A DNA stretch of 64,000 bases from a virus: IMG/VR virus record IMGVR_UViG_3300043436_001870, positions 49,165 to 113,164 of that record, one strand, 5' to 3'. The notes under the pieces are model-generated. The model did not search any database. It worked only from the letters and a program-made list of their open reading frames with translations, and had not been told where the DNA came from. The position numbers were made by a program, and so were the translations under genes. Numbering within the stretch: position 1 is the first letter of the stretch; every line of letters starts with the position of its first letter. Of this stretch, positions 26,404 to 45,271 are shown piece after piece.

Positions 26404-26429
26404 AAAGTTTAATAAACTTTTAAAGTTTA
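26404..26429. promoter_or_regulatory. Triple alternating 8-bp repeat (operator/promoter-like)
   Basis: AAAGTTTA-a-TAAACTTT-t-AAAGTTTA forms two overlapping perfect inverted repeats in the only sizeable gap of the cargo block. Confidence 0.5.
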
Positions 26430-29210: not shown

Positions 29211-29222
29211 AGTGTAAAGGTA

Positions 29223-31757
29223 TTATTTACCGAACTTATATGCTCCGGCTTTCTTAACATTTTTAATTGTAGGCATAGTCATGTAGTATGTATCAGCATA
29301 ATAAAAAGGTTGTCCACCGTACTGTGCATACATACCTCTAACATTTGCAGTTGCTTGACGAGGTCTAAAACCAAGACCAATACCTGGTTGATTCATAAAG
29401 TAAGATCCTTCACTATTACGAGCATTAGATTTACCATGAACCTGAAGAGCTGAATTAAAATCTGCATCTTCCTGATTCCAGCTACCGTACTTATTAAAGA
29501 AACCGGCAAGAGTATCCATACCAGCAATCATTTGATCAGCACTTAAATCAGCAAAAAGACCTTTTCTCTTTATCTTGTTATCTTTAATAATCTGGTCCTC
29601 TGCTCTAAAAGGATCAGCTTCTTTCTCAATCTCTCTAGCTTGTTGATCCATAAAGTCATTTACACCGGTATCCCAATACATATTTTGTGTATTGTTAGCC
29701 TCAGCATTTACAGCTACAGCTCCATCAAATGGAGGCATCTCAGCAGAAAAAATATTGCTCTTCTCACCAGAAAAATCAGTGCTCTGAAACATTGGTAATG
29801 CATATGGACCACCATGTCTCATACCTTCCATAATACCTTTTAACATAGCCTCTCTATGTTGAGGATTATTTTTATCAAAAGTTGTGGATCCTCCAGTGTT
29901 TACTTCTGTGCCTACGTAAGGACTTGGTCCAAGAACTGGTCCTTTTACATTTGATCCAATAGGATTAATTGTTACCATAGGTTCAGTTTGATTAAATGAA
30001 GAATAATCAAAATCTGTATTACCAGCAGACATCATTGATGGTTGCTTAACAGGACCCTCTGGACCAATTACAGGACCGGCTGGTGCATATGATGGTTGAT
30101 TAGGTCTATAGTTCCAATTATATGCCATTTGAACCTTTTGATCAGTAGTCATTGCAGGCATAGCACTTTGGAATGTATTAGGATCTTGAATAGCAGGAAC
30201 CTGAGTTGTTTTTGCAGACTCAGTTGGCATTGTTGTCCTATAAGGACCCTGACCAACACCTTGCTTTACAAGATCAAAACTCTTGATTCTATTACCAGGT
30301 AAAAGAGCTGCTCGTGTTTTTATATTAGTGGGTACGTAACCTCTAAGGTCAACACCTGATAAAGCATAACCAAGAAGTGCATTAGCACTCTTTCTTCTAA
30401 GTCCTCCTCCAGGTATGTAATCTAAGAAATTACCATAGTTGGCTTGTTGCTGTGGTTGTCTATAACCTTGTGGGTACTGATAATACTGTGGTCCAGATTG
30501 ATATGGTGTATCAAAGTACATACGACCAGAACTATCTACAGGTACACGTCTACCACTACCATCATTTAATTCTACCATTCGCCATCCTTCCCAACCTGTT
30601 GGTGTAGTACCAGTAGTACTAGTGGTTGTTGTAGCAGAATTAGTAGGACCAGTTGCTGCAGGTGCACTTGATGAACCACTTGTTCCTGTTGTACCAGCAG
30701 CTGTAGTACCAGATTCTTGTTTCTTCTTCTCAGCATCAACCTCAGCTTTTAATTCTTCTGCAGTTCTTGCTTTAGTAGCAGTTGCTGTAGAAACACCACC
30801 TGATGTAGTACTGTTTGACTTAGGTTGAGCAGCCGGAGCCGATGCAGCTGGTTTACTGCCAGATCCTGCTGCAGGAGCAGAAGATCCAGAAGATGGTGTA
30901 CCAAGTAGTCCTAATGCATCAACGTTGTAATCAACAACATTAGTATTGTAGTTAGGATTATTAGGATCTAACATCATAGACCCTGGTGCTAGACCTGTAA
31001 CATCATACTGTCCAGATGTATCTTTAGATTGATACTTAGGTATACCACCATATCTCATTCCAGACATTGGAGGAGCCTCATCTACAAGCTCAATAGACTT
31101 CATTAGTGCCTTCTGTCCATTGTTCTGGATCTTACCAATAAAGTTCTGCATCTTATCTGTATAGAAACTGTCTTTACCAGTTCCTGTTGGCTGGCCTCCA
31201 GCTTGTAAAGAAGGTTGGCCACCGGCCATCATTGGATATGGTGTACCATAGTAATGGTTCATATCCTCCTGAGTTCTTGAATCAATACCAGCTAATTCAG
31301 ATCCTGATTGCATTACAGGAAGCATGCCTGTAAACTGAGGCATACCAGGAGGAAAGTTACCACCAGACTGAAGCATAAAGTAATTAGTCTTACCCCATCC
31401 TTTGTTTGGAAAACTTACTGCCTGAGGAAATGCCTCTTGATATGATCCACCAACCTCATATGCATTATTACTATTAGTATAAACAGGAGCAAAGAACTGT
31501 TGCTCTGATTGAATCTGAGGATAGATATTAGGTAGACCAGTAGCACCACCATCTCTATGATAAGTAGGAGGCACGGGTACACCATAACTAAAGAACTGAT
31601 CAGCAGTTGCTATCTGAGGAAAGGCCTCAGGAGTTCCACCCATTGCTAATTTCTTGGCCTCTGGAAAGTCTCTGAAGAAGTTTTCCTCACCATATGCTTC
31701 TAATTCCTGAGGAGATTTAAAACCTCCCATCTTCATGAACTGCTTTATAAGATTCAT
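29223..31757 (-). CDS. Low-complexity virion cargo protein (844 aa) with about 10 hydrophobic-x-x-GG motifs
   Basis: MKMGG, LAMGG, HRDGG, YEVGG, LQSGG, MMAGG, LQAGG, MRYGG, MRHGG, AQYGG; S/T/A/P-rich disordered centre; repeated (F/Y)PQ peptide. Confidence 0.65.
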   Translation of the reverse strand: MNLIKQFMKMGGFKSPQELEAYGEENFFRDFPEAKKLAMGGTPEAFPQIATADQFFSYGVPVPPTYHRDGGATGLPNIYPQIQSEQQFFAPVYTNSNNAYEVGGSYQEAFPQAVSFPNKGWGKTNYFMLQSGGNFPPGMPQFTGMLPVMQSGSELAGIDSRTQEDMNHYYGTPYPMMAGGQPSLQAGGQPTGTGKDSFYTDKMQNFIGKIQNNGQKALMKSIELVDEAPPMSGMRYGGIPKYQSKDTSGQYDVTGLAPGSMMLDPNNPNYNTNVVDYNVDALGLLGTPSSGSSAPAAGSGSKPAASAPAAQPKSNSTTSGGVSTATATKARTAEELKAEVDAEKKKQESGTTAAGTTGTSGSSSAPAATGPTNSATTTTSTTGTTPTGWEGWRMVELNDGSGRRVPVDSSGRMYFDTPYQSGPQYYQYPQGYRQPQQQANYGNFLDYIPGGGLRRKSANALLGYALSGVDLRGYVPTNIKTRAALLPGNRIKSFDLVKQGVGQGPYRTTMPTESAKTTQVPAIQDPNTFQSAMPAMTTDQKVQMAYNWNYRPNQPSYAPAGPVIGPEGPVKQPSMMSAGNTDFDYSSFNQTEPMVTINPIGSNVKGPVLGPSPYVGTEVNTGGSTTFDKNNPQHREAMLKGIMEGMRHGGPYALPMFQSTDFSGEKSNIFSAEMPPFDGAVAVNAEANNTQNMYWDTGVNDFMDQQAREIEKEADPFRAEDQIIKDNKIKRKGLFADLSADQMIAGMDTLAGFFNKYGSWNQEDADFNSALQVHGKSNARNSEGSYFMNQPGIGLGFRPRQATANVRGMYAQYGGQPFYYADTYYMTMPTIKNVKKAGAYKFGK

Positions 31758-31758: not shown

Positions 31759-34700
31759 TCACTTGTATTTATTAAGCCACGAGCTTGTATTAGACAAAGT
31801 TACACTATTAATATACTTATTTTTACTGAGAGATCCACCTTTTTCAAATTCCTGTTTTTGATTATTTTGTAAAACAGGTTGAGGAACCTGCAATGGTTGT
31901 GGTGCTCTTGGTTGTATATATGGAAAAGGTAATGCCTTTAGTTGATTATGATAATCTGCATATTGTGATTCCAATTCTGGTAATTTTCCTTGATAACTAT
32001 AATAATTCATTGTTTTTGGATTCATCCAATTTGCTAGTTCCTCTTCATCTTTAGGTATTTCAAAAGTCCAATCCTTTCCGGAACCGGAATCATAAAAAAA
32101 ACCTTTTTGTGTATCTGTAGCATTTCTTCTTATTCTAGAATCAACATTAGAAACATTGCCTGATGATACCATTGTATGCCAATACCCTGGTCTTTCAATC
32201 ATTGCTACATCACCAGCTTCTAAATTTTCATACTTTGTAGGATACCAACCTTTATCAGGAGTAAGTTCATCTTTTAGTTTTCTACCTGATGAAATTTGTT
32301 TTACAGGATATCCTGATTTTCTTAATGCTTCTGTAGCTCTTGTTGCACAATATTGTTGACCATTTGGTAAAACAGTACAAAAAGGAACATTATCCATAAA
32401 ATGAGATTCTCCACTATCTAATAGATTTTGTTTAAATCTTTGTATATCCGCATACTCAGTTTCATAATTTTTTCTTATGTTATTCATTTCACTTTGAATA
32501 TCATAATATTCTGGGTTACTTCCTCCCTTTTGATACTTGTTTATCCATCCACCATCTTTTTGTTGTGGAGTATCTTGTCCTGCTATAACAGCTGCAGCTC
32601 CTGTACCTATTGCTGCTGGTACTAATGCTTTATAGATATTAGGATTAGTCATATCAAACATTCCATTGTTGCCTATTGCTGATTTAATATTTTTTGGGTC
32701 AAAAACTATAGTTTGTCTATGGTATGGAAAAATGTTTTTATCAAGAATACCATCATAGTTATTTTTTAATAACTCATTAAGTTGTTCATTTGTTATTTGG
32801 TCGTTTCCATAAGTACCTTTTACTCTACCTGAATATGGTTTTTCCATATTAATGTATGTTTGGTATATTTCTCTTTCATTTTTAGGTGTATTTCTTGAAT
32901 AACTTTCAGCCCTTGACTTACTGGGCGTAAAATAAATACCTTGGTCTCCAGTATATGTATCTCTTTTAATATACCCTTTATCTTGGGGTGTTAAAAATTG
33001 TTCATACCCTACTTTACCTCCATGATATTGAAAAGCAAAACTACCATCTGAATTTACTAATTTAGAATTACCAAATGCCTTTTTAAAGTTTTCACTATTC
33101 TGTTGCACAAATTGTTCAGGCGTTCCTTTAAAAGGAGAACCATCAGGATTTTTCATCCAACTACCATCAGCTTTAGTTGTTTGTTCTATAGCATGATACT
33201 CATCCATTAAAGCTTTATTAGATGGTATTTCAGAATTCCATTTGCCCCAATCTATTTCTGATTTAAATTTATTAGCAGAACCTGGTAGTTGAGTAGGTGT
33301 AAAAAGTTTTTGTTGGTCTAAAGGAATTACAAACTCTCTATCAGCAGCTCTACTTAAAGATTTATCATAATTTTGAAACTCTGCTAACCTACTCTTAGGT
33401 ACTTGTAGTTGTATAATCTCTGGGTCAACAAATTCTCTATCAGCTTTGTAAAAATCAAAATCTGCTTTATCTTTTGTAAACCATTGTCCAAAATATTTTT
33501 CTCTATCTTTAAAATGTTGTATAGCTTTTTCATTTTGAAACATTGGTCCTAATTTACCTTCAGCAGCTAATTCAGACATGGGTCTAGCTCCTCTTTCTTG
33601 TATTCTCCATAAATCAACTAAATCATCAACATTACCAGAATCTGGTAATTGTTTGGTCTTGCTCCCTTTAGACCCTTTTAAAAATGGAATAGGTAATGAT
33701 CCAGCTAACTCTAAAGCTCCTTCTGCAAGATTTCCAGAAGCAATATTAGAAAGTCCATAGAATGCTCCAGCTCCTGTAGGAAAGATAATGTTATTGAATG
33801 TTTTATTAGCATCTTCTCTTCTATCCATAATTGCTTGCTGAACCTCTGCTTCACCACCTGGTAATATTCTTTCTCCAGTTTGAGGATTTTCATAAACGGT
33901 CTGCATAGAACCTAAAGCTCCGGGAACTTGTCTTGCAACAAAACCCTTAGGAGTTTTTTTGGTATATGCAGTCATTATCCTATGATTTAGAGCTGCATCT
34001 TCCTCTACAGGATTACCTTTTGGTTTAGGTGTGGCTACAGAAGTTTTATCTGCAACAGCTTGTTGATTGCCTACATATCTAATATCACTAGTATCAACAG
34101 GCTGCTTCATAAACTTGGCAAGCTCTGGATTAACTTGATTACCGTCTTGATACTTCTGTAACCAACCACCATACTTATACCCTGCTTTAATAAGATGTTT
34201 TTGCACATCTCCTTTTGTTAAGTCACTAACAAAACTAATAGTCTCCATAAGATTCTTTGCAGTATCAAAATTCATATTTTGACTAAGCATACTAAGTGTA
34301 TTATACTCAGCATTTTTATCTATCTGTCCTAGTATTCCATCTCTAATAAGTTTTTTTAATGTTTCTTCTTGCACGGTAGGATTTATATTTCCAATATTTT
34401 TAACCCAATGATTACTCATTTTAGGGGTTACTGCTGGTGATAGATCAATAAACTTAAAAGAATTAGAAGCATCATCATAAAAAACATTACTGCCAGCATT
34501 ATCAATTGCTGATCTATTTTGTGCTAACTCAAAATAGTCTTTTGCATATTGAGTCCAGGCATCTGTTGGAATATTAATTATCTTATCTGTTGGTAAAGAA
34601 TATAAAGGTTTACCCTCCATTCTACGCATTATATATGCATTTAATATGTCAGGTTTTGTTATAATCTCAGCACTTTTTGGAGAACCTGGTATGCCATTAT

Positions 34701-37700
34701 CCTTTACTGTATCAGCCAAAGCAGAGATATTCTCGTTCGGCACTTCTGGAATATATTTTTGATTATTAGATAAAATTCTTTGTTGGTTAACTACTTTACC
34801 AACATTAGGACTCTTAATATTTTTTTGCATTTGACTTAGGTCAATGTCCATAAACTCAGGAATATATTGAGAAACTTGCTCAGGACTTTCATATTTAAGC
34901 AAGTAACCTGGATAATCAGGTAATTCATATACTCCTTTGTTAAAAGCACCGTCAGTAGCAATGTTTGGACCTGTCCGAACAGCAGTTACATCAATGTTTT
35001 TTGGAGACTGGTAAACTCTTTTGTATCCAGTTAGCCAGTTTGGTTTAGCTTCATAAATTGCATTAATATCTTCAAGATCTAGCTGCTGTAAAACTTCTCC
35101 TGTTTCAGGATCAATAGGTCTAGCTGCTGCATGACGCCCTACAATTTTTTGACCTGTTACAGGATTTATTTCTCCTCGGGAATACATAGGTACATCAGAC
35201 TGCATTAAATAATGAGGTGTTGAATCAGTGCTTTTAAAAACCTCTGCTGGTTTTCCTTTTGAAAAAGATGGAAACTCTGTAGGTCTACGAAATACCGAAT
35301 TATCTCCAATAGGATTAGCCCTTACTAAAAATGTTTTGAGTGCATCATCATATCCAGCTTGATTCACATATCTATAATTCATGTTTCCTTCTAATGGTGT
35401 AAAGACACTTCCTTTAGCAGTAGGATTTATTTTATATGTATATTGTAAAGGTGTCTGAGTAGTAAGATATTTACCTGCTCTTGCTGCATTCTCAGCTATA
35501 TTAGTTCCTTCTAATAATCCTATACCAACAGCATTGAGTGGATCATACCCTGCTTCATAAAGATTACTCATTGCAGCTGCATATTCTGGTTGTCTATAAT
35601 CTGTAAACAATGGCTTAGATCTCTGACCTTGTAGGGCAGAACCAAAATCTCCAGTAATAGCACCTGTCACAAGATTAGTAGGATAAGATAACGGTGCCAA
35701 CATTCCCATAGCAGATGCATTGGCGGCTTCCTCTTGAGTATAATCTGAATTAGTCCATAATGGTTGATTAATAAGATTGTTACCTTGATACCAATCAATA
35801 GGTCCAACGGCAGCTATGTTTGCAGCATTTCTTAAATTCTTCTCAAGACCTTGGCTAAACTGACTAGTAAAATCTGGATCTAGTTTACCAGCATATTGTG
35901 ATCTTTCAATAGTAGATCTTTCTTCCGGGGTGAGAGAGTTTAACCACTCTACTCTAGTTCTGTCTCCCTGAGGTTTATTACCTAAAATCTCTAGAGCTAC
36001 TTGATCATTGGCATTCTGTGATGCTCTTTTTTGAACACGGGGATCTAATGGATTCATACCTAATGACTTAGCAAAAGGTGTCATCTCACCCTCTCTTGTC
36101 TTAGCCGCTATCTTCTGCTTCTTTTTATCTAAGTCAGTAAGATTATACTGATACTCAACAGGCTTAGTCATAACAGTCATAGGTCCAAATTCTGGATCAT
36201 ATGTCTGATATGAATCTTTAAATAAGAAGTTCCATTTGGGATCATTAGGATCTACCTCAGTTTTTCTACCATCAGCTTTTCTTACAGCTTTTTGAAGCCA
36301 TCTTTGCTTTTCTTCAGTAGTAAGAGATCTTCCTTTTTTACGTTCTTTCTCTGCAAGTAAGTCTGTCCACTGCTCTACACCTTTATTGTATTCATCCCAA
36401 CCTTTAGCATAATCAGCAGACTGTTGTGCCTGTGGATCTAGAGATGGAAGAGTAAAATTACTTGTTGGTTTAACTTGACTAGAACCTTCATTACCTTGAT
36501 ATTTATTTAACCAGCCACCATACTGCATGGTCTGTTTATCATATAGATCTACAGCCTCATGATACTGGAACTTACCATCACCCTTAGAAGCATTAGCTCG
36601 TCTGTAATTGATATAGTTATCATACCCACCTTGTTCAATTAATTGAGCAGCTACTTTACCAATAGATTGATTGTATGATATTCCTGCTAATTTAGCAAGC
36701 TGGTCTGATGTCATATCTAGACCATACTCATTGGCTACTTCTTTTAGGTAAAGGTAGTTTTTACTAAGTACATAGAATGTTGGTAAGCCTGCCTTTACAG
36801 GATCCGTAAGTTCATAATCAGACTCATATAACTTACTTCTTAATTGAGGATTGATGTTAGTCTCATCTTTTAGGGATGTGATGCCCATTGATTTTTCTCT
36901 CTCAGGCATAAGGGCATCCTGTAATCCTTTTGCTACAGCACCTGCTACTATACCTGATGGTCCTGGTAGTACATTTGATATAATAGATTTTTCATAATTC
37001 TTTCCTGCATATGTTTCTCTAGTAGGAATAATCCGAGCAACTCTCATAAGTTTTCCAAACTCATTTTCTGTAATAGGAATATCCTTAAGAATTGAATCTT
37101 TATTCTTCTCAATTACTGAAAGAAACTTATGAGTATTTTCTCCTGAAATTGATTGACCAGCCCAATCTGCTTGATTTGCTAAAGCACCTTCAGGTTTAAA
37201 TTGGCCATATTCTGTTTGGTAATAGGATATACCTCCTGCTGGTATCCTTCCATCATTGTCTACACCATCAAAATAGTTAGGTCTTGTGATACCTGCAATT
37301 AATGATACCTGACTCTTACTATTACCTGGTACCTTACCTTCAATAAAATCTTCAACTGGTTGTTTTTGAAGATCTCCATGGACATTATGCTCAACATATA
37401 ATTTACCATCCTTGTCAGCTTTTACAATACCAACGTGTGTAGTAAAGAATCTATTATTTAAAGGCTGAGTTTGATTCCATGCTTTCTTTGTAGAAGGAGA
37501 ACCTTCATAAAATATATTAACAACATCACCAGGTTTAATGTTACCTGTATTCAACATTTCTCTTAGCTGTCCTTTTACAGCATCATTATTCAATGTTGAT
37601 TTAAGATAGTTTTTTATTTCATTCTCACCAGCCTTAGGTGACAATGGAATCTGTGATCTTTCAGGTAAACCTGTAAATAAAAGTTTACCTCCTTTATTTT

Positions 37701-39180
37701 GCAAGTTTTCAGAAAGAGTCCATGCATCACCTTTAAAACCAAGTTCTTCTCTAGCCTCTTCTCCTACAACATCCTCACTACATACAGTTCCATTAATATA
37801 TTGAGCACATCCTCTTACAACTTGTCCTTTTACTTTAGCATCTTCAGTTTTATCATAGTCCTGATTAGGATCTATACTAAAGTTGTAACCTATCTTAATA
37901 TCAGATGGTTTTAAGTTAAAATCATACTTTACATTACCTGTAAAAAAACCTCTTTTCATAAGATCTTTTTCAAAGTCTTGCATTGACTGATTAGTTAAAC
38001 CAACATCTGGTTCACCAGTTTGTGGATCATATAACTCAAATGGACTTCTTACAGAAATACCTAAAGTACTCTTTGCATCAATTTTATTCTTGTATGCACG
38101 TATAGCATCTTTAGTATTATTATCAAGTTGTCCAGAGTTGTACTTCTGGTTATACATGTTATACTGACGTATAGCATTAAGAGTCTGTTTATCAATTTTA
38201 CCTGATAAATTACCATCTATGTTTTCACCAGTAACACCAAGAACTTCAAGTAATCCTTCATTAGCCAAATATTTCTGAAGCTCAATTACTTGTTCAGGAG
38301 TTTGATAGTCTTCAACTTTAATTATTTTCTTTGTTTCTGGATAATAACCTTTTCCATCTAAATAAGACTGAACCTTTATGATATCATCTGGTGTATAGTC
38401 AGAGGCATTCTTATGTCTTAGATTAAAATCTGCTGTTTGCTTATATGCATTTACAGCTTCATCTTCATCCTTGTAGGGTGCAACAAAAAACTCAGGTGAT
38501 GCAGCATACTTGTTAACCTCTCTTCTCTTTTCAATCTCCTTAGTTTTAGGTATATCAACACCTGACACAAGTGAGTATAACTCTGGAGCAATCTCAGCCA
38601 TTGCAGGATTCTCTACAAGATTAGTAGGTTCTTCAGCAGGATTCTTAGCAACAGGTTTTGAAGCAGCTGGTTTAGGAGCAGCCGGCTTTTTAGTTTCGGA
38701 TACACCTAATGATGACAACCATTTGTCAACATAATCTTGTGGCTCATTTGCCTTAGGAGCAAACTTTGCCATAAGGTTCTTAAGTACTTGTGACTTGTTT
38801 GAATCAAGCTCTTTCCATTCTTCAGTACCCTTCTCACGGATTCTCATTCCATCAGGTTCATCAATATACTCAAGTCGGCTACCAAAAGTTTTGACACCAC
38901 CCTCTTGATATTTACTCAACCATCCTTTATCAGAGAGATCTGGTATTGATATGTCACCTCCTGATTGAGCCATAGGTATCTCATACACCATTTTACCAGG
39001 AAATTGATACTTGCCTCCAGGCTGCATCATAATAGGTGGTTGGCCAGGTACAAATCCCATTACAGGGTATGGTACACCCTCCATGGTTATTCTACCATCT
39101 TTAGTTGGTACTGCTGTAAGTTTTCCTGGATGAGCCCATTGACCATTCTTATCTACAATAAACTTATTAAGCTTACTCAT
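31759..39180 (-). CDS. Polyvalent cargo polyprotein (2473 aa): PG-binding, CHAP/NlpC-like, lysozyme-like, ART-like, kinase-like, ART-PolyVal-like and second NlpC/P60-like domains
   Basis: CAQY...GDAW...PGDVV...THVGIV; RET..G...MGIT...DP...SYN; GAFNKGVY..LLKYE...IDNAGSNV...FIDL; YHGG...GIYFT...YDGI...IVFDPKNIKSAIGNNG; CATR...AGDV...WHT. Five W(L/I)xKY delimiters. Confidence 0.75.
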   Translation of the reverse strand: MSKLNKFIVDKNGQWAHPGKLTAVPTKDGRITMEGVPYPVMGFVPGQPPIMMQPGGKYQFPGKMVYEIPMAQSGGDISIPDLSDKGWLSKYQEGGVKTFGSRLEYIDEPDGMRIREKGTEEWKELDSNKSQVLKNLMAKFAPKANEPQDYVDKWLSSLGVSETKKPAAPKPAASKPVAKNPAEEPTNLVENPAMAEIAPELYSLVSGVDIPKTKEIEKRREVNKYAASPEFFVAPYKDEDEAVNAYKQTADFNLRHKNASDYTPDDIIKVQSYLDGKGYYPETKKIIKVEDYQTPEQVIELQKYLANEGLLEVLGVTGENIDGNLSGKIDKQTLNAIRQYNMYNQKYNSGQLDNNTKDAIRAYKNKIDAKSTLGISVRSPFELYDPQTGEPDVGLTNQSMQDFEKDLMKRGFFTGNVKYDFNLKPSDIKIGYNFSIDPNQDYDKTEDAKVKGQVVRGCAQYINGTVCSEDVVGEEAREELGFKGDAWTLSENLQNKGGKLLFTGLPERSQIPLSPKAGENEIKNYLKSTLNNDAVKGQLREMLNTGNIKPGDVVNIFYEGSPSTKKAWNQTQPLNNRFFTTHVGIVKADKDGKLYVEHNVHGDLQKQPVEDFIEGKVPGNSKSQVSLIAGITRPNYFDGVDNDGRIPAGGISYYQTEYGQFKPEGALANQADWAGQSISGENTHKFLSVIEKNKDSILKDIPITENEFGKLMRVARIIPTRETYAGKNYEKSIISNVLPGPSGIVAGAVAKGLQDALMPEREKSMGITSLKDETNINPQLRSKLYESDYELTDPVKAGLPTFYVLSKNYLYLKEVANEYGLDMTSDQLAKLAGISYNQSIGKVAAQLIEQGGYDNYINYRRANASKGDGKFQYHEAVDLYDKQTMQYGGWLNKYQGNEGSSQVKPTSNFTLPSLDPQAQQSADYAKGWDEYNKGVEQWTDLLAEKERKKGRSLTTEEKQRWLQKAVRKADGRKTEVDPNDPKWNFLFKDSYQTYDPEFGPMTVMTKPVEYQYNLTDLDKKKQKIAAKTREGEMTPFAKSLGMNPLDPRVQKRASQNANDQVALEILGNKPQGDRTRVEWLNSLTPEERSTIERSQYAGKLDPDFTSQFSQGLEKNLRNAANIAAVGPIDWYQGNNLINQPLWTNSDYTQEEAANASAMGMLAPLSYPTNLVTGAITGDFGSALQGQRSKPLFTDYRQPEYAAAMSNLYEAGYDPLNAVGIGLLEGTNIAENAARAGKYLTTQTPLQYTYKINPTAKGSVFTPLEGNMNYRYVNQAGYDDALKTFLVRANPIGDNSVFRRPTEFPSFSKGKPAEVFKSTDSTPHYLMQSDVPMYSRGEINPVTGQKIVGRHAAARPIDPETGEVLQQLDLEDINAIYEAKPNWLTGYKRVYQSPKNIDVTAVRTGPNIATDGAFNKGVYELPDYPGYLLKYESPEQVSQYIPEFMDIDLSQMQKNIKSPNVGKVVNQQRILSNNQKYIPEVPNENISALADTVKDNGIPGSPKSAEIITKPDILNAYIMRRMEGKPLYSLPTDKIINIPTDAWTQYAKDYFELAQNRSAIDNAGSNVFYDDASNSFKFIDLSPAVTPKMSNHWVKNIGNINPTVQEETLKKLIRDGILGQIDKNAEYNTLSMLSQNMNFDTAKNLMETISFVSDLTKGDVQKHLIKAGYKYGGWLQKYQDGNQVNPELAKFMKQPVDTSDIRYVGNQQAVADKTSVATPKPKGNPVEEDAALNHRIMTAYTKKTPKGFVARQVPGALGSMQTVYENPQTGERILPGGEAEVQQAIMDRREDANKTFNNIIFPTGAGAFYGLSNIASGNLAEGALELAGSLPIPFLKGSKGSKTKQLPDSGNVDDLVDLWRIQERGARPMSELAAEGKLGPMFQNEKAIQHFKDREKYFGQWFTKDKADFDFYKADREFVDPEIIQLQVPKSRLAEFQNYDKSLSRAADREFVIPLDQQKLFTPTQLPGSANKFKSEIDWGKWNSEIPSNKALMDEYHAIEQTTKADGSWMKNPDGSPFKGTPEQFVQQNSENFKKAFGNSKLVNSDGSFAFQYHGGKVGYEQFLTPQDKGYIKRDTYTGDQGIYFTPSKSRAESYSRNTPKNEREIYQTYINMEKPYSGRVKGTYGNDQITNEQLNELLKNNYDGILDKNIFPYHRQTIVFDPKNIKSAIGNNGMFDMTNPNIYKALVPAAIGTGAAAVIAGQDTPQQKDGGWINKYQKGGSNPEYYDIQSEMNNIRKNYETEYADIQRFKQNLLDSGESHFMDNVPFCTVLPNGQQYCATRATEALRKSGYPVKQISSGRKLKDELTPDKGWYPTKYENLEAGDVAMIERPGYWHTMVSSGNVSNVDSRIRRNATDTQKGFFYDSGSGKDWTFEIPKDEEELANWMNPKTMNYYSYQGKLPELESQYADYHNQLKALPFPYIQPRAPQPLQVPQPVLQNNQKQEFEKGGSLSKNKYINSVTLSNTSSWLNKYK
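33271..33651 (-). repeat. Imperfect 21-bp direct repeat (18/21) flanking an in-frame 360-bp cassette
   Basis: 33631-33651 attaccagaatctggtaattg versus 33271-33291 attagcagaacctggtagttg, encoding QLPDSGN and QLPGSAN. Confidence 0.7.
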
Positions 39181-42100
39181 TATCTTGGAGAATTGAGGAG
39201 TTTAGTATTTGTTACTTTCAACAACATTTTTACATTGTCTGATATTGTTCTTGTAAGGACAATGTGATTCAGGTAATGTCTGAACTTCTTACGTTCAAAT
39301 GGTGACTTATTATAGTTAAGGTTATTTACATTCAACACTCTAATGTAACCATTAATTTCTGTATTCCAAATAGGTTGCTGAGCCTGTACACCGCCCACAA
39401 TGAATTCACCACGGTTATTGGTTATGTCCCAGAACTGATTGAATCTGTATTTCTGTTCCTCCTTAGAGTATAGAATACTAATACTGTTTGGGTTTACCTG
39501 AGGATAGTTTACAATTACTGGAGCATTGTTCTTAGGACTAGTAATCAAATTAAGTGTACCAGAAACTTGTTCAGTATTATAAACTATAGCCTTATCAAAA
39601 TTAAAATCAAGAACATGGAATCTATCAATACCATTAGGATTGTAAACATATGCCTCCATAATGTATTCAACATTTCTGGTAGTATTAACAGCTTGTCCTG
39701 TAACAGATGCATAGTCAATCTCAAATGGATAGTCTACACCATAGAAGTTACAAAACTTACTAGTAAAGTTACCATGTCTCCAAATGCTTGAAGATCCGTT
39801 CTGAGTGTTTGTTGTAAGGAAACCTCTAATACTTGACATAGCATATTCTGGATGCCAGTCATGGAATGACAACCATATTCTTAACTTAGAGTCAAAACTT
39901 ACTGTCCATGATGCATCTTCAAAGTACAAAGGATCTCCAAGTACAAATGGAATCTTAGCACCACCTGGTGCTTTATAAGTAAAATCAAGTCCACCTAAAT
40001 ATGTAACATTGTCAATGTACTCATCCTTGACTCTGTAGTCTTTCTTGCAGAAATAAATAATACCATTGTCATTATCATAAAGTGACTGGCAACCAATTCC
40101 TACAACAGGATTATCTGCTACTTCAAAATTAGGAAACTGATCAAGTAGGAACATCTTTAAATATTTAGAGAACCACCACTTCATACCCATATCAGATATG
40201 GCAGCCATTCCCTCAGCTACTGTAAAGATCTTACCTTGTGATGCACTCATCCAAAATATACCAGCAGGAGTATTTATAATACTCAATCTATGCTGTGATG
40301 AACCATGTTGAAACTCTTGATCAGCATTGCTTAATGTCTGAAGTGGTTGACTAAATAAGCCACCATCTCCAATTGTAATTTTAGTGCCAGCTGTTGTTTG
40401 AAGTTGATCAACAGCATTAAACATCAATGGTGTTGAATGCTCAAACAAAATAATAGCACCATTCTTATTTATGGATTTGAATGCTACAACTCTGTCATCA
40501 AAGTCATTGTAGTTGTTTACAAGATAAATATGCCAGTAGTCTTTTTTATCCTCTTGATTCTGTGGAAGAGAGTATATTACTCTATTAGGAAAATATGTGT
40601 AACATTTTTCTGCTGTGGTAGGACTGTAAGATCTATCCTGCATAGCTCCCCATGATAAGAAACTATTTAGAACTTTTGTTACACCAAGAGAAATGTCATA
40701 CTTGTAGAAGTTACCGACTCTTATGATATCTGTGCTAAACAGATTATTAAGATTAGCATACCCATATGGATCATAGAATCTTTCAGCAGGAGTATCATTG
40801 TAATCTCTGTGATCTACGTTGTATTCAGTTTCAACATAAAAATCTAAGACTCCTGATTGAAACAAATACATGTAAGCATTCTTTACTCCAATTCTAAAAC
40901 TAGAAAAAAGATTTGCAAAAAATCCATCAATACCTGTATTGTCAACTCTGTCTAAGTTATATCTACCAGAAGGCAGTGGATTGGTTATAGCATCAACACC
41001 TCCTTCAAGAAGATTCTGAACGGCACCTGTTAAACCTTGAATAAAATCAGCTGTATCATATTTGCTAAAGTCTGCAAAAAATCTTGCATAGTTTACCATA
41101 TACCTTGTGGTATAATCAATCTCTGTTCCTATAGGTACATTGTATAACCAATCATAAAAATAGAAGAAGGTATTCTTCTCAGTGTATCTTCCTATGTAAA
41201 CATCTCCACCAAGTATTAATGGTGTTTTGTCTACTACAACTCTTGATCTTGGTCTTGTAGGGAATGTATAGTCTATTGCTTCTGGGCCCAGGGGCTGATC
41301 AAAAGAAAATACACAGCCTGTTGTAATCTGGCTAGGTGATTCTATCTGACCATATTGGTTTCTAAATCTTACCTTTAGTCCCGCATAAAAAGCTGAGCCT
41401 GTTGCATTAAAAGAACCTCCAGGACTATTGAACTTGATACCCTTATTAAATACATTAGGATTATTCTGAACACTACCTATAGTCTGTACAGAGTTGTCAG
41501 CTAATGATGGATCACCAATTGGATTATTAAGTTCTATTGCAACTGTCTTAGATCTAAATAAGTTATTTACTGTTTTATCAGAAAACGTAGTAATCTGATT
41601 GTCAATGTATACTGAGTTTATAATAGATCTTCTGGTATTAGCAACACCATTCAGATTCAGCTTAGCATTACCCTGAGCATACTTATTAAGATTTACATGG
41701 CTTAAGCTCCGGTAAACATAATCCCTATAAGGAGTGATAGATCTTAATAGTTCAAGCATTGCATCGGTACCCTGCATCCAGTATGATGCAAATGTTACAA
41801 TACCACCTGCTGTTCTAAATATAACAGGAGCATAACTAAAATCAGACCTTTCTACCTCATACTCCATTGATGGTCCAATACCTGCAGCACCTAATGCAGC
41901 ACCTCCAGTTACAGCTCCTATTTGTCCAAATATTATTCCTTGAATAGTGGCTAATGATGCATCAACTCCACCACCAGCCATAGTACCAATGTTAAGAGCA
42001 CTACCGGCACCAGTTGGACCATAATTATAGTTATCATTACCACCTAATGGAGTTAGTAATCCGACATTGATTGGTGTGGCTGGTACTGGAGCAGTTCCAC

Positions 42101-44363
42101 TAAATCCTGGTGTAAAAGTTTTACCTGTCTGATATTTACTAATATCTCTACCACGAATAGATTTCATGGCAGTACCAATACCTACAATTGCTGATATTAT
42201 AAAAGCTAAGTTAGTTATTAACTTCTCTTTAGGATGCCCAGGAACAGGTTCAAAACGACCCAGCATATTAAACCTAGATCCCACCTCTCCATAAAGTTTT
42301 AATTCAGTTGCAGATAAGAAAGGATCATTAAAAGTTGTGTCAGGAGAATGAAAAGTAAATAAACGTCTACTAACATTATCATTCCAGGTATTAGAGTTAT
42401 TAAGCTGTGCACTATAACCACCCTGACTATTAAAATTAGAAAGAGTATGATCCTTTCCTAAGTAATTGCAAACATAGTTTTGGTAATAGATCAATTCATC
42501 TTGACTACCATTATCTTCAACATAATAACGCATGTTGCGGATTATACCTTTAGCAACAATAGTTCTATTACCTTGTCTGTTTGATCTTAGAATTTCATAA
42601 CCAATTACACCAGGAATAATGTTACCATCATTGTCAACAGGAGCCTTAATGTTTTCAAACTCAACACCCAGAATTCTAATAGCTCTAGCTTGAGTAGCTG
42701 TAAAAGTAGTACCAGAAAATGATCCTGCCGATGTACGTACATGACCATAGTTTTGACCTGTAGCAACATCACCGTAAGTTGTATCTGTTGCATATATAGC
42801 ATCAGCTGGCATCTTATGGTGTCTTATAGGAAGTCCACATAAGTCATATGCCGGATCAGATGTTCCAGCCCATGTATGCTGAGTTGCATTCCATATCTCT
42901 GGTTTGTTTGCTGGATATTTTTCAGTAGATTCCCAGTAACCCATTTTACCACGGGCTATAACCTGACCAGCTACTACAGAAGCAGTATCAGTAGGTAAGT
43001 TGTTTTCAATTACATAAGCTGTATTAACAACTTCCCAGAGTTCAGGAATATAATTAGGATCCTGAGCATATTCAATATTATCAAGATTGGCAGAACTAAA
43101 TGAAGCTTTTTCCCATGATTGAGCAGGTCTACCAGGTATATGATATGAACTAGATCTTTCACCAGTATTATAAACCCAGCGAATATAGAAGGCATACTGC
43201 TCATCTCTCATGTAACCATTTTCATTACCACCATTCTCATAGTAGTTTGGTGGTTGCTCAATCATTACCCAGTTTGTTCTGATCTGATTGGCCAATGGCT
43301 GATAATTAAAATCAAACTTTGCAGTAGGAGCTGCTCTGATCAAGTAATTATTTACAGCATACATACCTTCAGACTTCTCATATGCTGGAGATCTAAGTGG
43401 TATATATGATAAAGGAATTGATTCTAATTCTGGATTAATGTAATCAATAGTTACAGAATTAGTCTCAGTAACATAATTACCAATCTTTCTAGCAACTGTC
43501 TGTTGATTTACTGTACCAACAATAACAAGTTCAAACTCTTGAAATCTATCAGTATCCATATTTGAAAAACTGATATCAAGTGAACCTGTGGCATTGTTAT
43601 GACTAAACAGAGGTTGAATCTGAGAAGGATTAAAATAGTCAGTGACACGTTGCTGATTAATTGTATAAGCAACAACGGCATAGTAACTACCATTTAATAA
43701 CTGCCCACCAGTAAGTCCTGTGCTAATTTTAACACAGGGTATCTTCATTAACCGAGCAATCCTTGTTTTCTCTACATCCAGAGTCAAAGGAATGTTTGGT
43801 TGACAGTCAATACAAGGACCAGGTAAAACATCTGTGCACTCATAGGGCACACCTGGCCATGGCTCATTCTGAGTAATATCAGGATAGTCTCTGAGTCTTA
43901 CATCACCAATATTTAAGGTCCTGTCTGGATTCAAAGCATCACACCAGTAGAGCTGATAAGAGCAGTCAAAATTCTGCTTAGAAGCTCCTATAATTATGTT
44001 AGTTCTTTTGAATCCCCATTGAGTATCATTACTAATTGGCTTATACTCACATAACTCATCATTGAATAATCCAATTTCAGAATTGATATCATCTGTTGTA
44101 TAAACAGCCCAGTAGTGTTCTACAATAGGAATAGCACCTATAAAGGTGTATGGTAATGTAACACACTTTAAGTTTGCAGGCTCATTTCCAATAATACCCA
44201 GGTCACCAGAGTCTGAGTTATTTACCACATTTCTAGCATCATACCATGAACCCTCAGGAGCAAACGTGGGGTCATAGTCTTTAACCATACCTTTGTTAAA
44301 GGTATTTGTCTCAGCACTGCTAGTATTCTGTGATGGAGTATTTTCTGATGATTTCTTAGCCAT
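39180..44363 (-). CDS. Tail muzzle / stabilization protein (1727 aa)
   Basis: N-terminal TFNKGMVKD.D......SWYDARN; YMRDEQYAFYIRW; C-terminal SWTVSF...WLSFHDWHP, characteristic of crAss-like muzzle (P22 gp10-like) proteins. Follows the ring genes. Confidence 0.85.
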   Translation of the reverse strand: MAKKSSENTPSQNTSSAETNTFNKGMVKDYDPTFAPEGSWYDARNVVNNSDSGDLGIIGNEPANLKCVTLPYTFIGAIPIVEHYWAVYTTDDINSEIGLFNDELCEYKPISNDTQWGFKRTNIIIGASKQNFDCSYQLYWCDALNPDRTLNIGDVRLRDYPDITQNEPWPGVPYECTDVLPGPCIDCQPNIPLTLDVEKTRIARLMKIPCVKISTGLTGGQLLNGSYYAVVAYTINQQRVTDYFNPSQIQPLFSHNNATGSLDISFSNMDTDRFQEFELVIVGTVNQQTVARKIGNYVTETNSVTIDYINPELESIPLSYIPLRSPAYEKSEGMYAVNNYLIRAAPTAKFDFNYQPLANQIRTNWVMIEQPPNYYENGGNENGYMRDEQYAFYIRWVYNTGERSSSYHIPGRPAQSWEKASFSSANLDNIEYAQDPNYIPELWEVVNTAYVIENNLPTDTASVVAGQVIARGKMGYWESTEKYPANKPEIWNATQHTWAGTSDPAYDLCGLPIRHHKMPADAIYATDTTYGDVATGQNYGHVRTSAGSFSGTTFTATQARAIRILGVEFENIKAPVDNDGNIIPGVIGYEILRSNRQGNRTIVAKGIIRNMRYYVEDNGSQDELIYYQNYVCNYLGKDHTLSNFNSQGGYSAQLNNSNTWNDNVSRRLFTFHSPDTTFNDPFLSATELKLYGEVGSRFNMLGRFEPVPGHPKEKLITNLAFIISAIVGIGTAMKSIRGRDISKYQTGKTFTPGFSGTAPVPATPINVGLLTPLGGNDNYNYGPTGAGSALNIGTMAGGGVDASLATIQGIIFGQIGAVTGGAALGAAGIGPSMEYEVERSDFSYAPVIFRTAGGIVTFASYWMQGTDAMLELLRSITPYRDYVYRSLSHVNLNKYAQGNAKLNLNGVANTRRSIINSVYIDNQITTFSDKTVNNLFRSKTVAIELNNPIGDPSLADNSVQTIGSVQNNPNVFNKGIKFNSPGGSFNATGSAFYAGLKVRFRNQYGQIESPSQITTGCVFSFDQPLGPEAIDYTFPTRPRSRVVVDKTPLILGGDVYIGRYTEKNTFFYFYDWLYNVPIGTEIDYTTRYMVNYARFFADFSKYDTADFIQGLTGAVQNLLEGGVDAITNPLPSGRYNLDRVDNTGIDGFFANLFSSFRIGVKNAYMYLFQSGVLDFYVETEYNVDHRDYNDTPAERFYDPYGYANLNNLFSTDIIRVGNFYKYDISLGVTKVLNSFLSWGAMQDRSYSPTTAEKCYTYFPNRVIYSLPQNQEDKKDYWHIYLVNNYNDFDDRVVAFKSINKNGAIILFEHSTPLMFNAVDQLQTTAGTKITIGDGGLFSQPLQTLSNADQEFQHGSSQHRLSIINTPAGIFWMSASQGKIFTVAEGMAAISDMGMKWWFSKYLKMFLLDQFPNFEVADNPVVGIGCQSLYDNDNGIIYFCKKDYRVKDEYIDNVTYLGGLDFTYKAPGGAKIPFVLGDPLYFEDASWTVSFDSKLRIWLSFHDWHPEYAMSSIRGFLTTNTQNGSSSIWRHGNFTSKFCNFYGVDYPFEIDYASVTGQAVNTTRNVEYIMEAYVYNPNGIDRFHVLDFNFDKAIVYNTEQVSGTLNLITSPKNNAPVIVNYPQVNPNSISILYSKEEQKYRFNQFWDITNNRGEFIVGGVQAQQPIWNTEINGYIRVLNVNNLNYNKSPFERKKFRHYLNHIVLTRTISDNVKMLLKVTNTKLLNSPR

Positions 44364-44365: not shown

Positions 44366-45271
44366 TTATACAACATTGTTTACACGAAGATTAGCCATTG
44401 GATAAGGATATGATTTAAACATATCATAGTACTTACCATACATTGCTTTTCTATTCATTGCCCACACTTTCTCCATCTCAGAGAAGTTAGGTGTATTTAC
44501 AATTGACAAGGCATAGTTTCTTGCTGCTCTATATTCCTGTAGGACAAGTTGTAGCTGTGCTGCCACATTATTGCCATCCATAATAAGATTCTCAAGAATA
44601 CGTTTCTTCATAGCATATTCATAGTACTCATTGATCATAGGATGATCTGGCACCATAAGGTTACCATCAGTATCCTCAAGAGTACCTTGATAGTTAATAT
44701 ACAGATTCCCTTCTTTTAAGGATGTATAAATCCAGCCGTCTTTAATGTATGCCTCATCCTTTGCCATGTGATGTAGGTTAGGACAGTCACAATCTACAAA
44801 CTGAGAGTTTCTAAAACGGATTGGAGCAAAGTGGTCATAGGTTCTTGTCTCTGTATTTACAACCTGAATCAGCTGATAAGAATCTCCACACTTGGTCATA
44901 CAAACTGGCTGCTGAGGTAGTGATACATCAGAGCAGTAGTTTTGTTCTACCCATGGTCTCCATTCTGGAGTTACGTCTTGAACATTGGTACCTTGTGGTA
45001 CAGCAAAAGAATACTTAGCTTGACCACAGATTAAAGCAAAATTCATTACATAAAAATCATCAGGAAGTCTAACCTTACCATCACATACCTCAAGAACTCT
45101 CTCTTTGGTCATGTATATTCTAAGACCTAGATCATAGTTTACTCTAATAGCTACCTTGTACAACTGTGATGGATCAATAGTAGTATCCGTGGCAATAGCC
45201 TTCAGGTCAATTTTAACATCTTCTAGAAGACTGTCAAACGTCCTGTATTTTAAGGTGTAGTTATAGTTCAT
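44366..45271 (-). CDS. Tail ring (tubular) protein
   Basis: 301 aa; KVRLPDDFY and IYTSLKEGNLYINYQG...DGNLMVPD motifs; position next to the muzzle gene. Confidence 0.75.
   Translation of the reverse strand: MNYNYTLKYRTFDSLLEDVKIDLKAIATDTTIDPSQLYKVAIRVNYDLGLRIYMTKERVLEVCDGKVRLPDDFYVMNFALICGQAKYSFAVPQGTNVQDVTPEWRPWVEQNYCSDVSLPQQPVCMTKCGDSYQLIQVVNTETRTYDHFAPIRFRNSQFVDCDCPNLHHMAKDEAYIKDGWIYTSLKEGNLYINYQGTLEDTDGNLMVPDHPMINEYYEYAMKKRILENLIMDGNNVAAQLQLVLQEYRAARNYALSIVNTPNFSEMEKVWAMNRKAMYGKYYDMFKSYPYPMANLRVNNVV

Follow-up and report, generated by a model that had tools for sequence, protein, structure and literature searches.

What does a short peptide do when it recurs at every joint of one phage protein and again at its end? 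The DNA analysed here, a stretch of 64,000 nucleotides (the window) from a 113,164-bp viral record, contains a minus-strand open reading frame, 31759..39180, that is open over 2473 aa. A motif scan of its translation found five copies of W-[LI]-x-K-Y-[QK], with the consensus GG-W-L-x-K-Y-Q-x-GG, which mark each module joint as well as the protein end. A sequence-only reading of this DNA had described five delimiters and taken them for maturation-protease sites and/or capsid-loading tags in a cartridge of injected effectors. The protein, its tags and one adjoining segment are as follows.

31759..39180, minus strand: cargo protein P0001 (open reading frame and translation; Pfam ART-PolyVal; muzzle gene directly upstream)
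38896-38931, minus strand: tag copy 1, DKGWLSKYQEGG (W87, residues 84-95), from the motif scan
36493-36528, minus strand: tag copy 2, YGGWLNKYQG, in MQYGGWLNKYQG (W890, residues 885-896), from the motif scan
34141-34179, minus strand: tag copy 3, YGGWLQKYQDG, in YKYGGWLQKYQDG (W1673, residues 1668-1680), from the motif scan
32521-32562, minus strand: tag copy 4, DGGWINKYQKGG, also given as QKDGGWINKYQKGG (W2212, residues 2207-2220), from the motif scan
31759-31785, minus strand: tag copy 5, the terminal one, SSWLNKYK (W2468) with the stop codon next, from the motif scan
32578..32628, minus strand: hydrophobic Gly/Ala-rich segment ALVPAAIGTGAAAVIAG (residues 2185-2201), just ahead of tag copy 4, from the translation

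All five copies are present where they had been reported, against about 0.003 expected: in 20,000 shuffles of the protein, W[LI]xKY[QK] occurred 0.0026 times on average and at most once. A scan of all six frames of the window for W[LIVM]xKY picked out only the P0001 frame and one unflanked WIHKYE in a 3880-aa open reading frame. A looser scan of the whole record added only that WIHKYE and, within the muzzle gene, a WFSKY that is likewise unflanked; in the 113-kb record, flanked tags are confined to the P0001 gene. The copies in P0001 differ in synonymous codons (TTG/TTA/CTT/ATA, AAA/AAG, TAT/TAC, GGT/GGC/GGA). In keeping with a delimiter, the two copies covered by an AlphaFold model lie not inside folded domains but in low-confidence linkers between them, with a one-turn helix on WLxKY: copy 1 is within segment 61-94 (pLDDT <50), where WLS forms one helical turn, and copy 2 is within segment 883-922 (pLDDT <50), with a helix at 890-894. 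The arrangement of a hydrophobic Gly/Ala-rich segment followed by a tag is found also in distant homologues of P0001.

The genes on either side of P0001 bear on what kind of protein it is.

39180..44363, minus strand: muzzle protein gene, directly upstream of the P0001 gene (Pfam crAss_MUZ, E 1.4e-28)
29223..31757, minus strand: second cargo protein, 844 aa, G/P/Q-rich, with the degenerate tag RYGGIPKYQ and the kind of N-terminus that is conserved in proteins encoded after tag-bearing ones

Further upstream of the muzzle gene are the genes for the ring 1 and ring 2 proteins, a crassvirus capsid gene is nearby, and on its other side the P0001 gene is followed by the virion RNA polymerase (vRNAP) block. 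Since it comes directly after the muzzle gene and ahead of the virion RNA polymerase, the P0001 gene occupies the slot of cargo protein 1. We read P0001 as cargo protein 1, an ejected protein, of a crAss-like podophage from the environment that probably infects Bacteroidota; only two Bacteroidota MAG contigs carry the motif, and both look like phage DNA. From the position of its gene, with a weak N-terminal likeness to phi17:2 gp041, P0001 is predicted to be a virion protein that enters the host along with the DNA. The synteny is fixed in related loci, where the muzzle gene (or an apparent split C-terminal part of about 290 aa) is followed by the tag protein and then by the second cargo protein, which has a conserved 38-residue N-terminus containing E-F-Y-K-K-F-P. 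The 844-aa cargo protein and a 927-aa neighbour are low-complexity, G/P/Q/Y-rich and have degenerate tags, and HExxH zincin-like motifs are present in two giant neighbouring cargo proteins of 1906 aa and 3880 aa. The record is evidently incomplete, because the portal and terminase of PhicrAss001 find no match in it.

The domains that could be recognised in P0001, from its N-terminus, are these.

38956..39180, minus strand: N-terminal 'GQW' domain (residues 1-75), G-Q-W-x-H-P-G ... I-T-M-x-G-V ... E-x-P-M; 109 domain matches
38101..38295, minus strand: peptidoglycan-binding domain (residues 296-360); Pfam PG_binding_1, E 3.3e-4, just under the cut-off, and VIA
37267..37893, minus strand: NlpC/P60-like papain-fold domain (residues 430-638); VIA Z 4.5-5.3
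36523..37170, minus strand: lytic-transglycosylase or lysozyme-like domain (residues 671-886); VIA Z 6.0-6.9
34996..35883, minus strand: widespread module without an assigned function (residues 1100-1395); 71 distinct related segments
34177..34998, minus strand: kinase-like region (residues 1395-1668), a lead only; ESM Atlas features 0.93-0.94
33271..33684, minus strand: first ART-PolyVal-like domain (residues 1833-1970); hhalign 98.2%
32656..33048, minus strand: second ART-PolyVal domain (residues 2045-2175); Pfam PF18760, E 1.1e-10
31861..32508, minus strand: last module (residues 2225-2440), possibly CHAP/NlpC-like, a weak lead; ESM Atlas

The GQW domain is conserved, uncharacterised and without a family in Pfam or the PDB; among the sequences gathered (109 matches) the tag usually comes directly after it. 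A homologue of it is found in Leptolyngbya phage Lbo-JY46, in that phage's first cargo protein (E 3e-8), and the similarity of the P0001 N-terminal domain to phi17:2 gp041, annotated as a virion structural protein, is weak (E 0.005). The sequence-only reading had divided the rest of the protein into four enzyme sets. The peptidoglycan-binding, CHAP/NlpC-like and lysozyme-like folds of its first set were all seen, at middling Z in VIA. Residues 296-360 match peptidoglycan-binding domains including that of SltB3 (Z about 5, rmsd 1.9 A), residues 430-638 match many NlpC/P60 endopeptidases (LytE, CwlO, MepS, RipB) with middling Z and a consistent family, and residues 671-886 match MltE, MltF, MltC and Slt70, as well as the transglycosylase domain of T7 gp16 at Z 4.6. 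The second set, supposedly ART-like and kinase-like, kept only its kinase-like member, as a language-model lead: the ten best named ESM Atlas clusters for residues 1395-1668 are all protein-kinase-like (ABC1/RIO1, OspG, APH, WaaY), and Pfam has no match there. Its ART-like member is unsupported: hhalign gave no relation between residues 1100-1395 and ART. Both ART-like domains of the third set are present, the second as a match to the signature family PF18760 (42.9 bits, cut-off 31.2) and the first through alignment of residues 1833-1970 with a profile of residues 2040-2180 (hhalign probability 98.2%, E 3.5e-14, 72 columns); residues 1833-1970 recur as a near-identical block (86-94%) in the otherwise different homologues P0002, P0012, P0023 and P0024. 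For the second NlpC/P60-like domain expected in the last set there is a weak lead, in that CHAP/NLPC_P60 clusters are among the mixed ESM Atlas matches to residues 2225-2440 (at 0.91); Pfam has no match to these residues. Five separate P0001 segments searched in Pfam with E allowed up to 10 brought up no meaningful match, and none at all came from Foldseek with the 1200-residue model at E up to 0.001, from PHROGs or from a profile search of PDB sequences.

Peptidoglycan-binding, NlpC/P60-like, transglycosylase-like and two ART-PolyVal-like domains, with the kinase-like lead, make several unrelated domains in one chain. By this combination of effector and wall enzymes P0001 is a polyvalent protein (Iyer, Burroughs, Anand, de Souza and Aravind 2017, PMC5512222), and it shares with the described ones ART-PolyVal, hypervariable mosaicism, predicted delivery with the DNA and, in its relatives, zincin modules. 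The passages of that article on processing, cleavage and linkers describe no conserved inter-domain or terminal peptide, and the word 'linker' is absent from its main text. Here, by contrast, an 11-residue tag stands at joints and at both termini of proteins, and P0001 itself does not have the zincin domain proposed as processor.

Do relatives keep the tag, as the sequence-only reading required of a delimiter? They do: there are 108 instances in 37 of 61 P0001 homologues, with L at 90%, K at 93% and Y at 98% (W was fixed by the search pattern, so its conservation was not scored) and GG common on both sides. At least 106 tag-bearing open reading frames were found by scanning in at least 120 metagenome loci, and related portal-bearing viral contigs of the clade number more than 500. 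Variants of the tag include WLNKYK, WLDKYQ, WLDNYK, WLSKYE and LLxKYQ. Individual proteins have two to six tags, and these are by no means confined to joints. The tag forms the C-terminal end of 21 of the 61 homologues and, among the matches listed, of 68 of the 106 metagenome frames. Other proteins begin with it (MSWLNKYAEGG, MKKWLDKYQ, MANNWLDKYAMGG, MGWLDKYQNGG), in several cases with a stop codon just upstream, and several open with M-x(1-3)-WLDKY, the tag two to four residues past the Met. Stand-alone proteins (L018, L019) have it at both ends, and in one lineage (L154-L156) consecutive separate genes start with M-A-L-L-K-K-Y-Q-D-G-G and finish with K-K-G-G-L-L-Y-K-K, which are related variants. 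The strict tag is absent from the cultured distant relatives Cellulophaga phi17:2, Flavobacterium FPSV-S29 and Leptolyngbya Lbo-JY46; phi17:2 gp041 has only four [FY]-Q-x-GG. A full-text search of the literature for the motif strings found no relevant paper, and the WLxKYQ tag is apparently undescribed.

Placed as it is, not only at joints but also where proteins start and end, the tag resembles an address or a label for docking more than a mere site of cleavage. Judged from the sequences, a putative capsid-loading tag fits better than a maturation-protease site, and near-invariant W, K and Y would fit a binding epitope better than a cleavage site. We tentatively propose, with a confidence a little short of even, that the tag is a label for docking or encapsidation and, at the same time, a joint for recombination. 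P0001 is a 'polyvalent' beads-on-a-string protein with wall-degrading domains first and cytoplasm-acting enzymes (kinase-like and two ADP-ribosyltransferase-like) later, an order that fits N-to-C threading through the tail. The tag is a short linear motif in flexible, glycine-hinged linkers (seen for the two modelled copies), and it marks the ends of modules and of proteins; we picture it as an amphipathic element of one turn in which W, L, K and Y are exposed. Its putative partner, a conserved component of the virion (a portal, tail-channel or capsid-interior protein), would recognise it, and the module bearing it would thereby enter the particle and/or be kept in sequence until ejection; cleavage beside the tag after loading would be compatible with such a label and not required by it. 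A bolder form of the proposal, possible if rather doubtful, makes the tag the universal portable address label of a large environmental crAss-like clade, so that any bracketed protein or module, encoded alone or fused, would be loaded by docking at a conserved site of portal, tail or capsid, and then injected. Were that true, injected effectors would be interchangeable between phages in the manner of cartridges, and foreign proteins could be packed into phage particles by means of the label.

Could the tag be cut instead? A phage protease acting at or beside each GG-flanked tag would free the wall-degrading and cytoplasm-acting enzymes as separate proteins, and the enzyme could be a packaged zincin domain of the giant neighbouring cargo proteins or a papain-fold, NlpC/P60-like domain of P0001 itself. 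Gly-Gly-directed processing of viral polyproteins is performed by the adenovirus protease and by ASFV pS273R. As at their sites, Gly-Gly here has a hydrophobic position that is conserved as its neighbour, and it separates functional units within one long precursor; unlike them, the tag has its conserved core between two GG pairs and is also at protein termini, and cleavage here is hypothetical. The flexible inter-domain linkers around the modelled copies 1 and 2, with Gly-Gly on both sides, would suit a protease, and the related variants at natural gene boundaries in L154-L156 are as expected if separated modules function. Processing also stays plausible because zincin-type HExxH modules are frequent in the homologues (17 of 61) and present in both giant neighbours. 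Embedded zincin peptidases have been proposed to process polyvalent proteins, and P1 DdrB is processed before packaging, according to PMC5512222. What tells against cutting is the placement of the tag: sites delimiting a polyprotein should lie only between functional units, and cutting separates nothing at C-terminal copies, just after a start Met or at both ends of small split genes. As originally stated, the claim of a maturation-protease site is therefore unsupported. P0001 itself contains no HExxH, no peptidase can be recognised in the tag-bearing proteins of smallest size (264-356 aa), and the open reading frames scanned with Pfam, which cover part of the genome, include neither a clan CE protease nor a member of the prohead-protease family. 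L, K and Y beside W are, moreover, 90-98% invariant, tighter than we would expect of phage head-protease sites. On this evidence we regard cutting as the function of the tag as unlikely. The earlier remark that GG-directed processing was not known for tailed phages was nevertheless too broad, because proteolysis of packaged proteins is well known in them (T4 capsid targeting sequence and gp21, phiKZ/SPN3US head proteins, P1 DdrB) and Gly-rich autoproteolysis has been described for lactococcal Tal proteins.

The tags might bind one another, or else the conserved start of the cargo protein that follows. Cargo molecules would then be linked head-to-tail or condensed into a 'cargo zone' within the capsid, and their order of exit would be set. 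The two to six tags per protein would provide multivalency, and the consecutive cargo genes with related variants at both termini, like the stand-alone proteins tagged at both ends, look suited to chaining; the following gene, moreover, always starts with the conserved 38-residue peptide containing E-F-Y-K-K-F-P, and the 844-aa and 927-aa neighbours are of low complexity with degenerate tags. Exact conservation of W-L-x-K-Y-Q would, however, be unusual for generic stickers, and co-occurrence of the tag with the second cargo N-terminus may reflect common descent alone; we consider such self-association quite unlikely.

Modules differ from protein to protein in number and content, the delimiter being kept, as the idea of a modular cargo had implied: there are 96 architectures among 135 proteins, and in these 95 module families have the tag at their borders, which puts one short peptide on otherwise unrelated proteins whose packaging is predicted. 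Ends of internal BLAST HSPs fall within 10 residues of a tag in 20% of cases against 2.9% for random positions, an approximately 7-fold enrichment of homology breakpoints. In the docking-label proposal, the same short coding sequence at every module border would let the tag double as a recombination joint, and rampant module swapping is proposed to follow from this sharing. Might the coding sequence be kept for module exchange alone, the peptide being a mere flexible linker? The breakpoints, the hypervariable architectures and the likeness of the copies' DNA, which is enough for microhomology (e.g. TGG TTR AAY AAR TAY CAA), speak for it, but residues are fixed while synonymous positions vary, copies at extreme termini cannot be joints, and an inert hinge has no need of invariant W, K and Y, all of which makes a joint without further function very improbable. 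There is as little likelihood that after ejection the W/K/Y element anchors the chain at a membrane interface or binds a periplasmic or cytoplasmic host protein, by analogy with the short epitopes in Gly-rich disordered regions of colicin translocation domains: Trp, Tyr and Lys are typical of membrane interfaces, the linkers that hold the modelled copies 1 and 2 are disordered and Gly-rich, and a hydrophobic Gly/Ala-rich segment comes immediately before copy 4, much as one precedes GGWLGG in gp45 of PhicrAss001, but tags also border modules predicted for different compartments and a five-residue core is short for anchoring.

The docking-label reading has a partial precedent in the T4 capsid targeting sequence, a short peptide that sends unrelated internal proteins into the head, from which the packaged proteins are later ejected. 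The T4 sequence is found solely at the N-terminus, from which the prohead protease cuts it off, whereas tags of the P0001 type are mostly C-terminal or internal and repeated, with no prohead protease among the scanned frames. T7 gp16 and N4-type ejection proteins are internal virion proteins in which a transglycosylase opens the cell wall during ejection. P0001 shares the transglycosylase (residues 671-886 against the gp16 domain, Z 4.6); to our knowledge those proteins are not modular in its way and have no repeated tag. We know of little, beyond T4 and P22, on how tailed phages pick the proteins that are packed in the head and injected ahead of the DNA, and for crassvirus cargo we know only of bound fragments of one cargo protein. 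A short near-invariant peptide on the starts, ends and joints of a hypervariable, putatively injected protein, present in more than 100 metagenome loci, would offer a mutable handle on the selection of cargo for packaging, on the order of its exit and on the exchange between phages of effectors (wall hydrolases, ADP-ribosyltransferases, kinase-like and zincin modules). Should the tag suffice to load a protein, it would have a practical use too, in the delivery of proteins with phage particles.

How does P0001 compare with crassvirus cargo protein 1, represented by PhicrAss001 gp45 (Pfam crAss_CARG1 PF25725; PDB 7QOG, 8CKB)? The P0001 gene, like that of gp45, is immediately downstream of the muzzle gene, in an order repeated in related loci, and distant P0001 homologues combine ART-PolyVal with CARG1; unlike gp45, P0001 is three times longer and carries enzymes. 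PF25725 was not found in P0001, either in the whole protein (E up to 0.1) or in five segments (E up to 10), and an HMM built from five CARG1 domains found nothing significant in the record. The idea that the GQW domain is a divergent CARG1 portal-binding domain was rejected, as no relation was detectable (hhalign probability 0.2%). A search for relatives with gp45 returned near-identical sequences only. In 150 diverse representatives of the gp45 family the strict motif is at chance level (2 matches in 122,819 residues) and W stands at the CARG1 border in 2 of 23 inspected, that is, it is not conserved; the idea that the tag is a conserved N-terminal element of CARG1 is weakened, only the loose GG-x-L-x-T-x-GG being conserved there (69 of the 150, with [YF]-[AQ]-x-GG punctuation common), and the link to gp45 appears weak. 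gp45 has been detected in virions and resolved in tail and capsid (Bayfield et al. 2023, PMC10172136). Within it, the look-alike A425-F-G-G-W-L-N-T-Q-G-G435, a lead only, is the exact start of the portal-bound domain 425-552 that is ordered by cryo-EM (PMC10172136), and a second look-alike, GGWLGG, comes after a Gly-zipper segment.

P0001, a protein of 2473 residues encoded at 31759-39180 (minus strand), contains five copies of the tag GG-W-L-x-K-Y-Q-x-GG, all at the positions that the sequence-only reading had assigned to them. Shuffles of P0001 give an expectation of 0.0026 copies of W[LI]xKY[QK], against the five seen. Synonymous codons differ among the five copies, and no other gene of the 113,164-bp record has a glycine-flanked copy. 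Two homologue searches gave 108 tag instances in 37 of 61 homologues, with the consensus K-x-G-G-W-L-[NDS]-K-Y-Q-x-G-G, in which conservation reaches 90% for L, 93% for K and 98% for Y (W is invariant by construction, being fixed in the search pattern). Nucleotide collections were scanned with the back-translated motif as the pattern. IMG/VR yielded four true tag loci; among 185,579 species genomes only two had the tag, both of them Bacteroidota MAG contigs resembling phage DNA; and JGI metagenomes yielded at least 120 loci, with at least 106 tag-bearing ORFs that have one to six copies each. IMG/VR contains more than 500 relatives of the portal encoded by a related complete genome; the best 80 listed are each more than 80% identical. 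The tag-bearing phages are a large environmental clade. The tag is absent from the cultured distant relatives Cellulophaga phi17:2, Flavobacterium FPSV-S29 and Leptolyngbya Lbo-JY46, and a full-text literature search for the motif strings found no relevant mention. The original observation is thereby confirmed, with a much wider reach than a single sequence could reveal.

The window makes up the right-hand 64 kb of the record, with nearly all of its genes on the minus strand. Eight large ORFs are found downstream of the muzzle gene. The features that place P0001 are:

61479-63101, crassvirus major capsid protein (Pfam)
44366-45933, tail ring proteins 1 and 2 (Pfam)
39180-44363, crassvirus muzzle protein (Pfam, E 1.4e-28)
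38956-39180, minus strand, GQW domain of ~60 residues at the N-terminus of P0001 (aligned together with the tag in A3)
29223-31757, minus strand, second cargo protein of 844 aa, starting with a variant, MNLIKQFMKMGGFKSPQELEAY..., of the N-terminal peptide conserved in genes at this place
6366-18008, minus strand, giant protein of 3880 aa with an SF1 helicase region at residues 3150-3611 (AAA_30, PIF1, UvrD_C_2)

Because its start coincides with the end of the muzzle gene, P0001 stands where PhicrAss001 has its cargo protein 1 (gp45), which is found in virions and is partly resolved within tail and capsid alike (PMC10172136). The 3880-aa protein with the helicase region is probably the virion RNA polymerase. 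Neither portal nor large terminase was found in the whole 113,164-bp record, whereas a portal is present in related records of 111-115 kb. The genome therefore seems to be incomplete, cut off within the ORF upstream of the capsid gene. A ferritin-like protein gene (56491-57096, minus strand; Pfam Ferritin, E 9.5e-21) lies amid the structural gene block. Between the capsid and tail genes, at 57808-59855 (minus strand), is a cluster that encodes an HNH-like protein of 139 aa and five small proteins of 63-89 aa that are very basic and K/G/A-rich. The 1246-aa protein encoded at 50538-54278 (minus strand) combines BNR/Sortilin-Vps10-like repeats with a von Willebrand A domain; its role is probably in the tail or in host binding.

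The intervals between tags had been read as four enzyme-bearing modules, A to D, and these fared differently. Module A has the folds proposed for it: a PG_binding_1-like domain (Pfam; structure-alignment VIA Z ~5, rmsd 1.9 A), an NlpC/P60-like domain (430-638; Z 4.5-5.3 against many members of that family) and a lytic-transglycosylase/lysozyme-like domain (671-886; Z 6.0-6.9, and 4.6 to the T7 gp16 domain). These Z scores are middling; the matched families are consistent and whole domains are covered. In module B, residues 1395-1668 are kinase-like by language-model features only, and the ART-like domain claimed there found no hhalign support. Both ART-like domains of module C hold up, one as Pfam ART-PolyVal (2045-2175) and the other by hhalign (1833-1970; 98.2%, E 3.5e-14). 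The latter block is 86-94% identical across otherwise unrelated proteins, which indicates recent exchange. The CHAP/NlpC-like fold of module D is a weak lead. Homologues bring further modules (glucosaminidase, YkuD, SLT), including HExxH zincin-like ones in 17 of the 61. P0001 belongs to the polyvalent proteins as Iyer et al. 2017 (PMC5512222) define them. By predicted function its wall enzymes come first and those acting in the cytoplasm later, which fits N-to-C threading and from which we infer the order of ejection.

In an AlphaFold model of residues 1-1200 (mean pLDDT 60.5) copies 1 and 2, counted from the N-terminus, lie between folded domains, within segments 61-94 and 883-922 (pLDDT <50 in both), each with a one-turn helix on WLxKY. 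Structural placement covers these two copies; residues 1274-2473 were modelled at pLDDT 39.6. Family-wide, 20% of internal BLAST alignment ends lie no more than 10 residues from a tag, as against 2.9% for random positions. Splitting 135 tag-bearing proteins at their tags gave 307 modules, which fall into 95 families; the number of distinct architectures is 96. These counts are crude because clustering was by single linkage. The predicted variation of modules around a conserved delimiter is borne out.

Internal joints are not the commonest place for the tag; the extreme C-terminus is. A terminal ...WLNKYK, ...WLDKYQ or close variant ends 21 of the 61 homologues, and a terminal tag is present in 68 of 106 metagenome ORFs among the matches listed. 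Several proteins start with it (MSWLNKYAEGG, MKKWLDKYQ, MANNWLDKYAMGG, MGWLDKYQNGG), some with a stop codon just upstream, and stand-alone proteins, 264 and 702 aa long, have tags at both ends. In another phage lineage (IMG/VR contigs L154-L156) five to seven consecutive separate genes each open with M-[AS]-L-L-x-K-Y-Q-x-G-G (e.g. M-A-L-L-K-K-Y-Q-D-G-G), and several close with K-G-G-[IL]-L-Y-x-K (e.g. K-K-G-G-L-L-Y-K-K). This row looks like the same delimiter system divided into single genes. In such sequences the delimiter is retained even where separating modules needs no cleavage.

The surroundings of the tag are also constant. The tag-bearing protein is always preceded by the muzzle gene or by one of ~290 aa, apparently the C-terminal part of a split muzzle gene; downstream, in the window and 71 related loci, there is always a second cargo protein with ~38 conserved N-terminal residues (M-K-A-Q-I-L-K-I-A-G-V-K-x-E-x-E-F-Y-K-K-F-P-T-E-E-A-F-M..., then low-complexity sequence). 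Here the 844-aa and 927-aa neighbours (26427-31757, minus strand) are G/P/Q/S-rich and of low complexity, with many x-x-G-G elements and the degenerate tags RYGGIPKYQ and RYGGMPLRSFQPGG. The conserved, uncharacterised GQW domain (G-Q-W-x-H-P-G ... I-T-M-x-G-V-x-Y-P-V-x-G ... V-x-E-x-P-M), for which no Pfam or PDB family was found, gave 109 domain hits among the sequences gathered. Within first-cargo proteins its place varies (N-terminal, central or close to the C-terminus), and GG-x-L-x-K nearly always comes directly after it. It also stands at the head of Lbo-JY46's first cargo protein (E 3e-8), and phi17:2 gp041 (L007:25179-27866) begins with a weakly similar domain. This gp041, a virion structural protein of a cultured phage, has four [FY]-Q-x-G-G copies where 0.06 are expected, and could serve as an experimental stand-in.

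The proposal that P0001 is a cartridge of effectors is partly supported: P0001 resembles a cartridge, being a polyvalent cargo protein whose linkers contain a conserved delimiter. That delimiter behaves like a label for ends and joints more than like a mere protease site. Copies at C- and N-termini, separate genes tagged at both ends, the lack of HExxH in P0001 and of any recognisable peptidase in the smallest tag-bearing proteins together point to the peptide itself being recognised. We tentatively favour a docking or encapsidation label that is also a recombination joint. That the tag is a processing site is unlikely, as the same four observations weigh against it. Cleavage beside it may still occur: processing of polyvalent proteins has been proposed (PMC5512222), and both neighbouring giant cargo proteins have HExxH motifs, which makes them candidate packaged peptidases. 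The motifs in the record are:

645-6365, minus strand, FHEFAH at residue 174 of a 1906-aa cargo protein
6366-18008, minus strand, YHEAWH at residue 711 of the 3880-aa putative virion RNA polymerase
record 38979-40181, plus strand, KHELLH in a protein of 400 aa encoded outside the window

Homotypic linking or daisy-chaining of tags is rather less probable again, and a host-directed motif and a joint or hinge only are both improbable.

For the docking label that we favour, PhicrAss001 gp45 offers a weak look-alike: A425-F-G-G-W-L-N-T-Q-G-G435 stands exactly at the start of the ordered, portal-bound domain 425-552 (PMC10172136), and GGWLGG immediately follows a Gly-zipper segment. The strict tag is no commoner than chance in 150 diverse representatives of the gp45 family; what they have in common is the looser GG-x-L-x-T-x-GG (69 proteins) and the strongly over-represented [YF]-[AQ]-x-GG (184 copies in 110 proteins). 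No CARG1, the portal-binding domain of gp45 (PF25725), was detectable in this record, and hhalign showed no relation between it and the GQW domain. On these three grounds the portal is a plausible docking partner by analogy, not a result. In the gut crassvirus C1 family (gp45, L163:11988-14516, and the 150 representatives) GG-x-L-x-T-x-GG precedes the CARG1 core, and a conserved basic C-terminal tail ends in ...K-K-G-L-T-Y-G.
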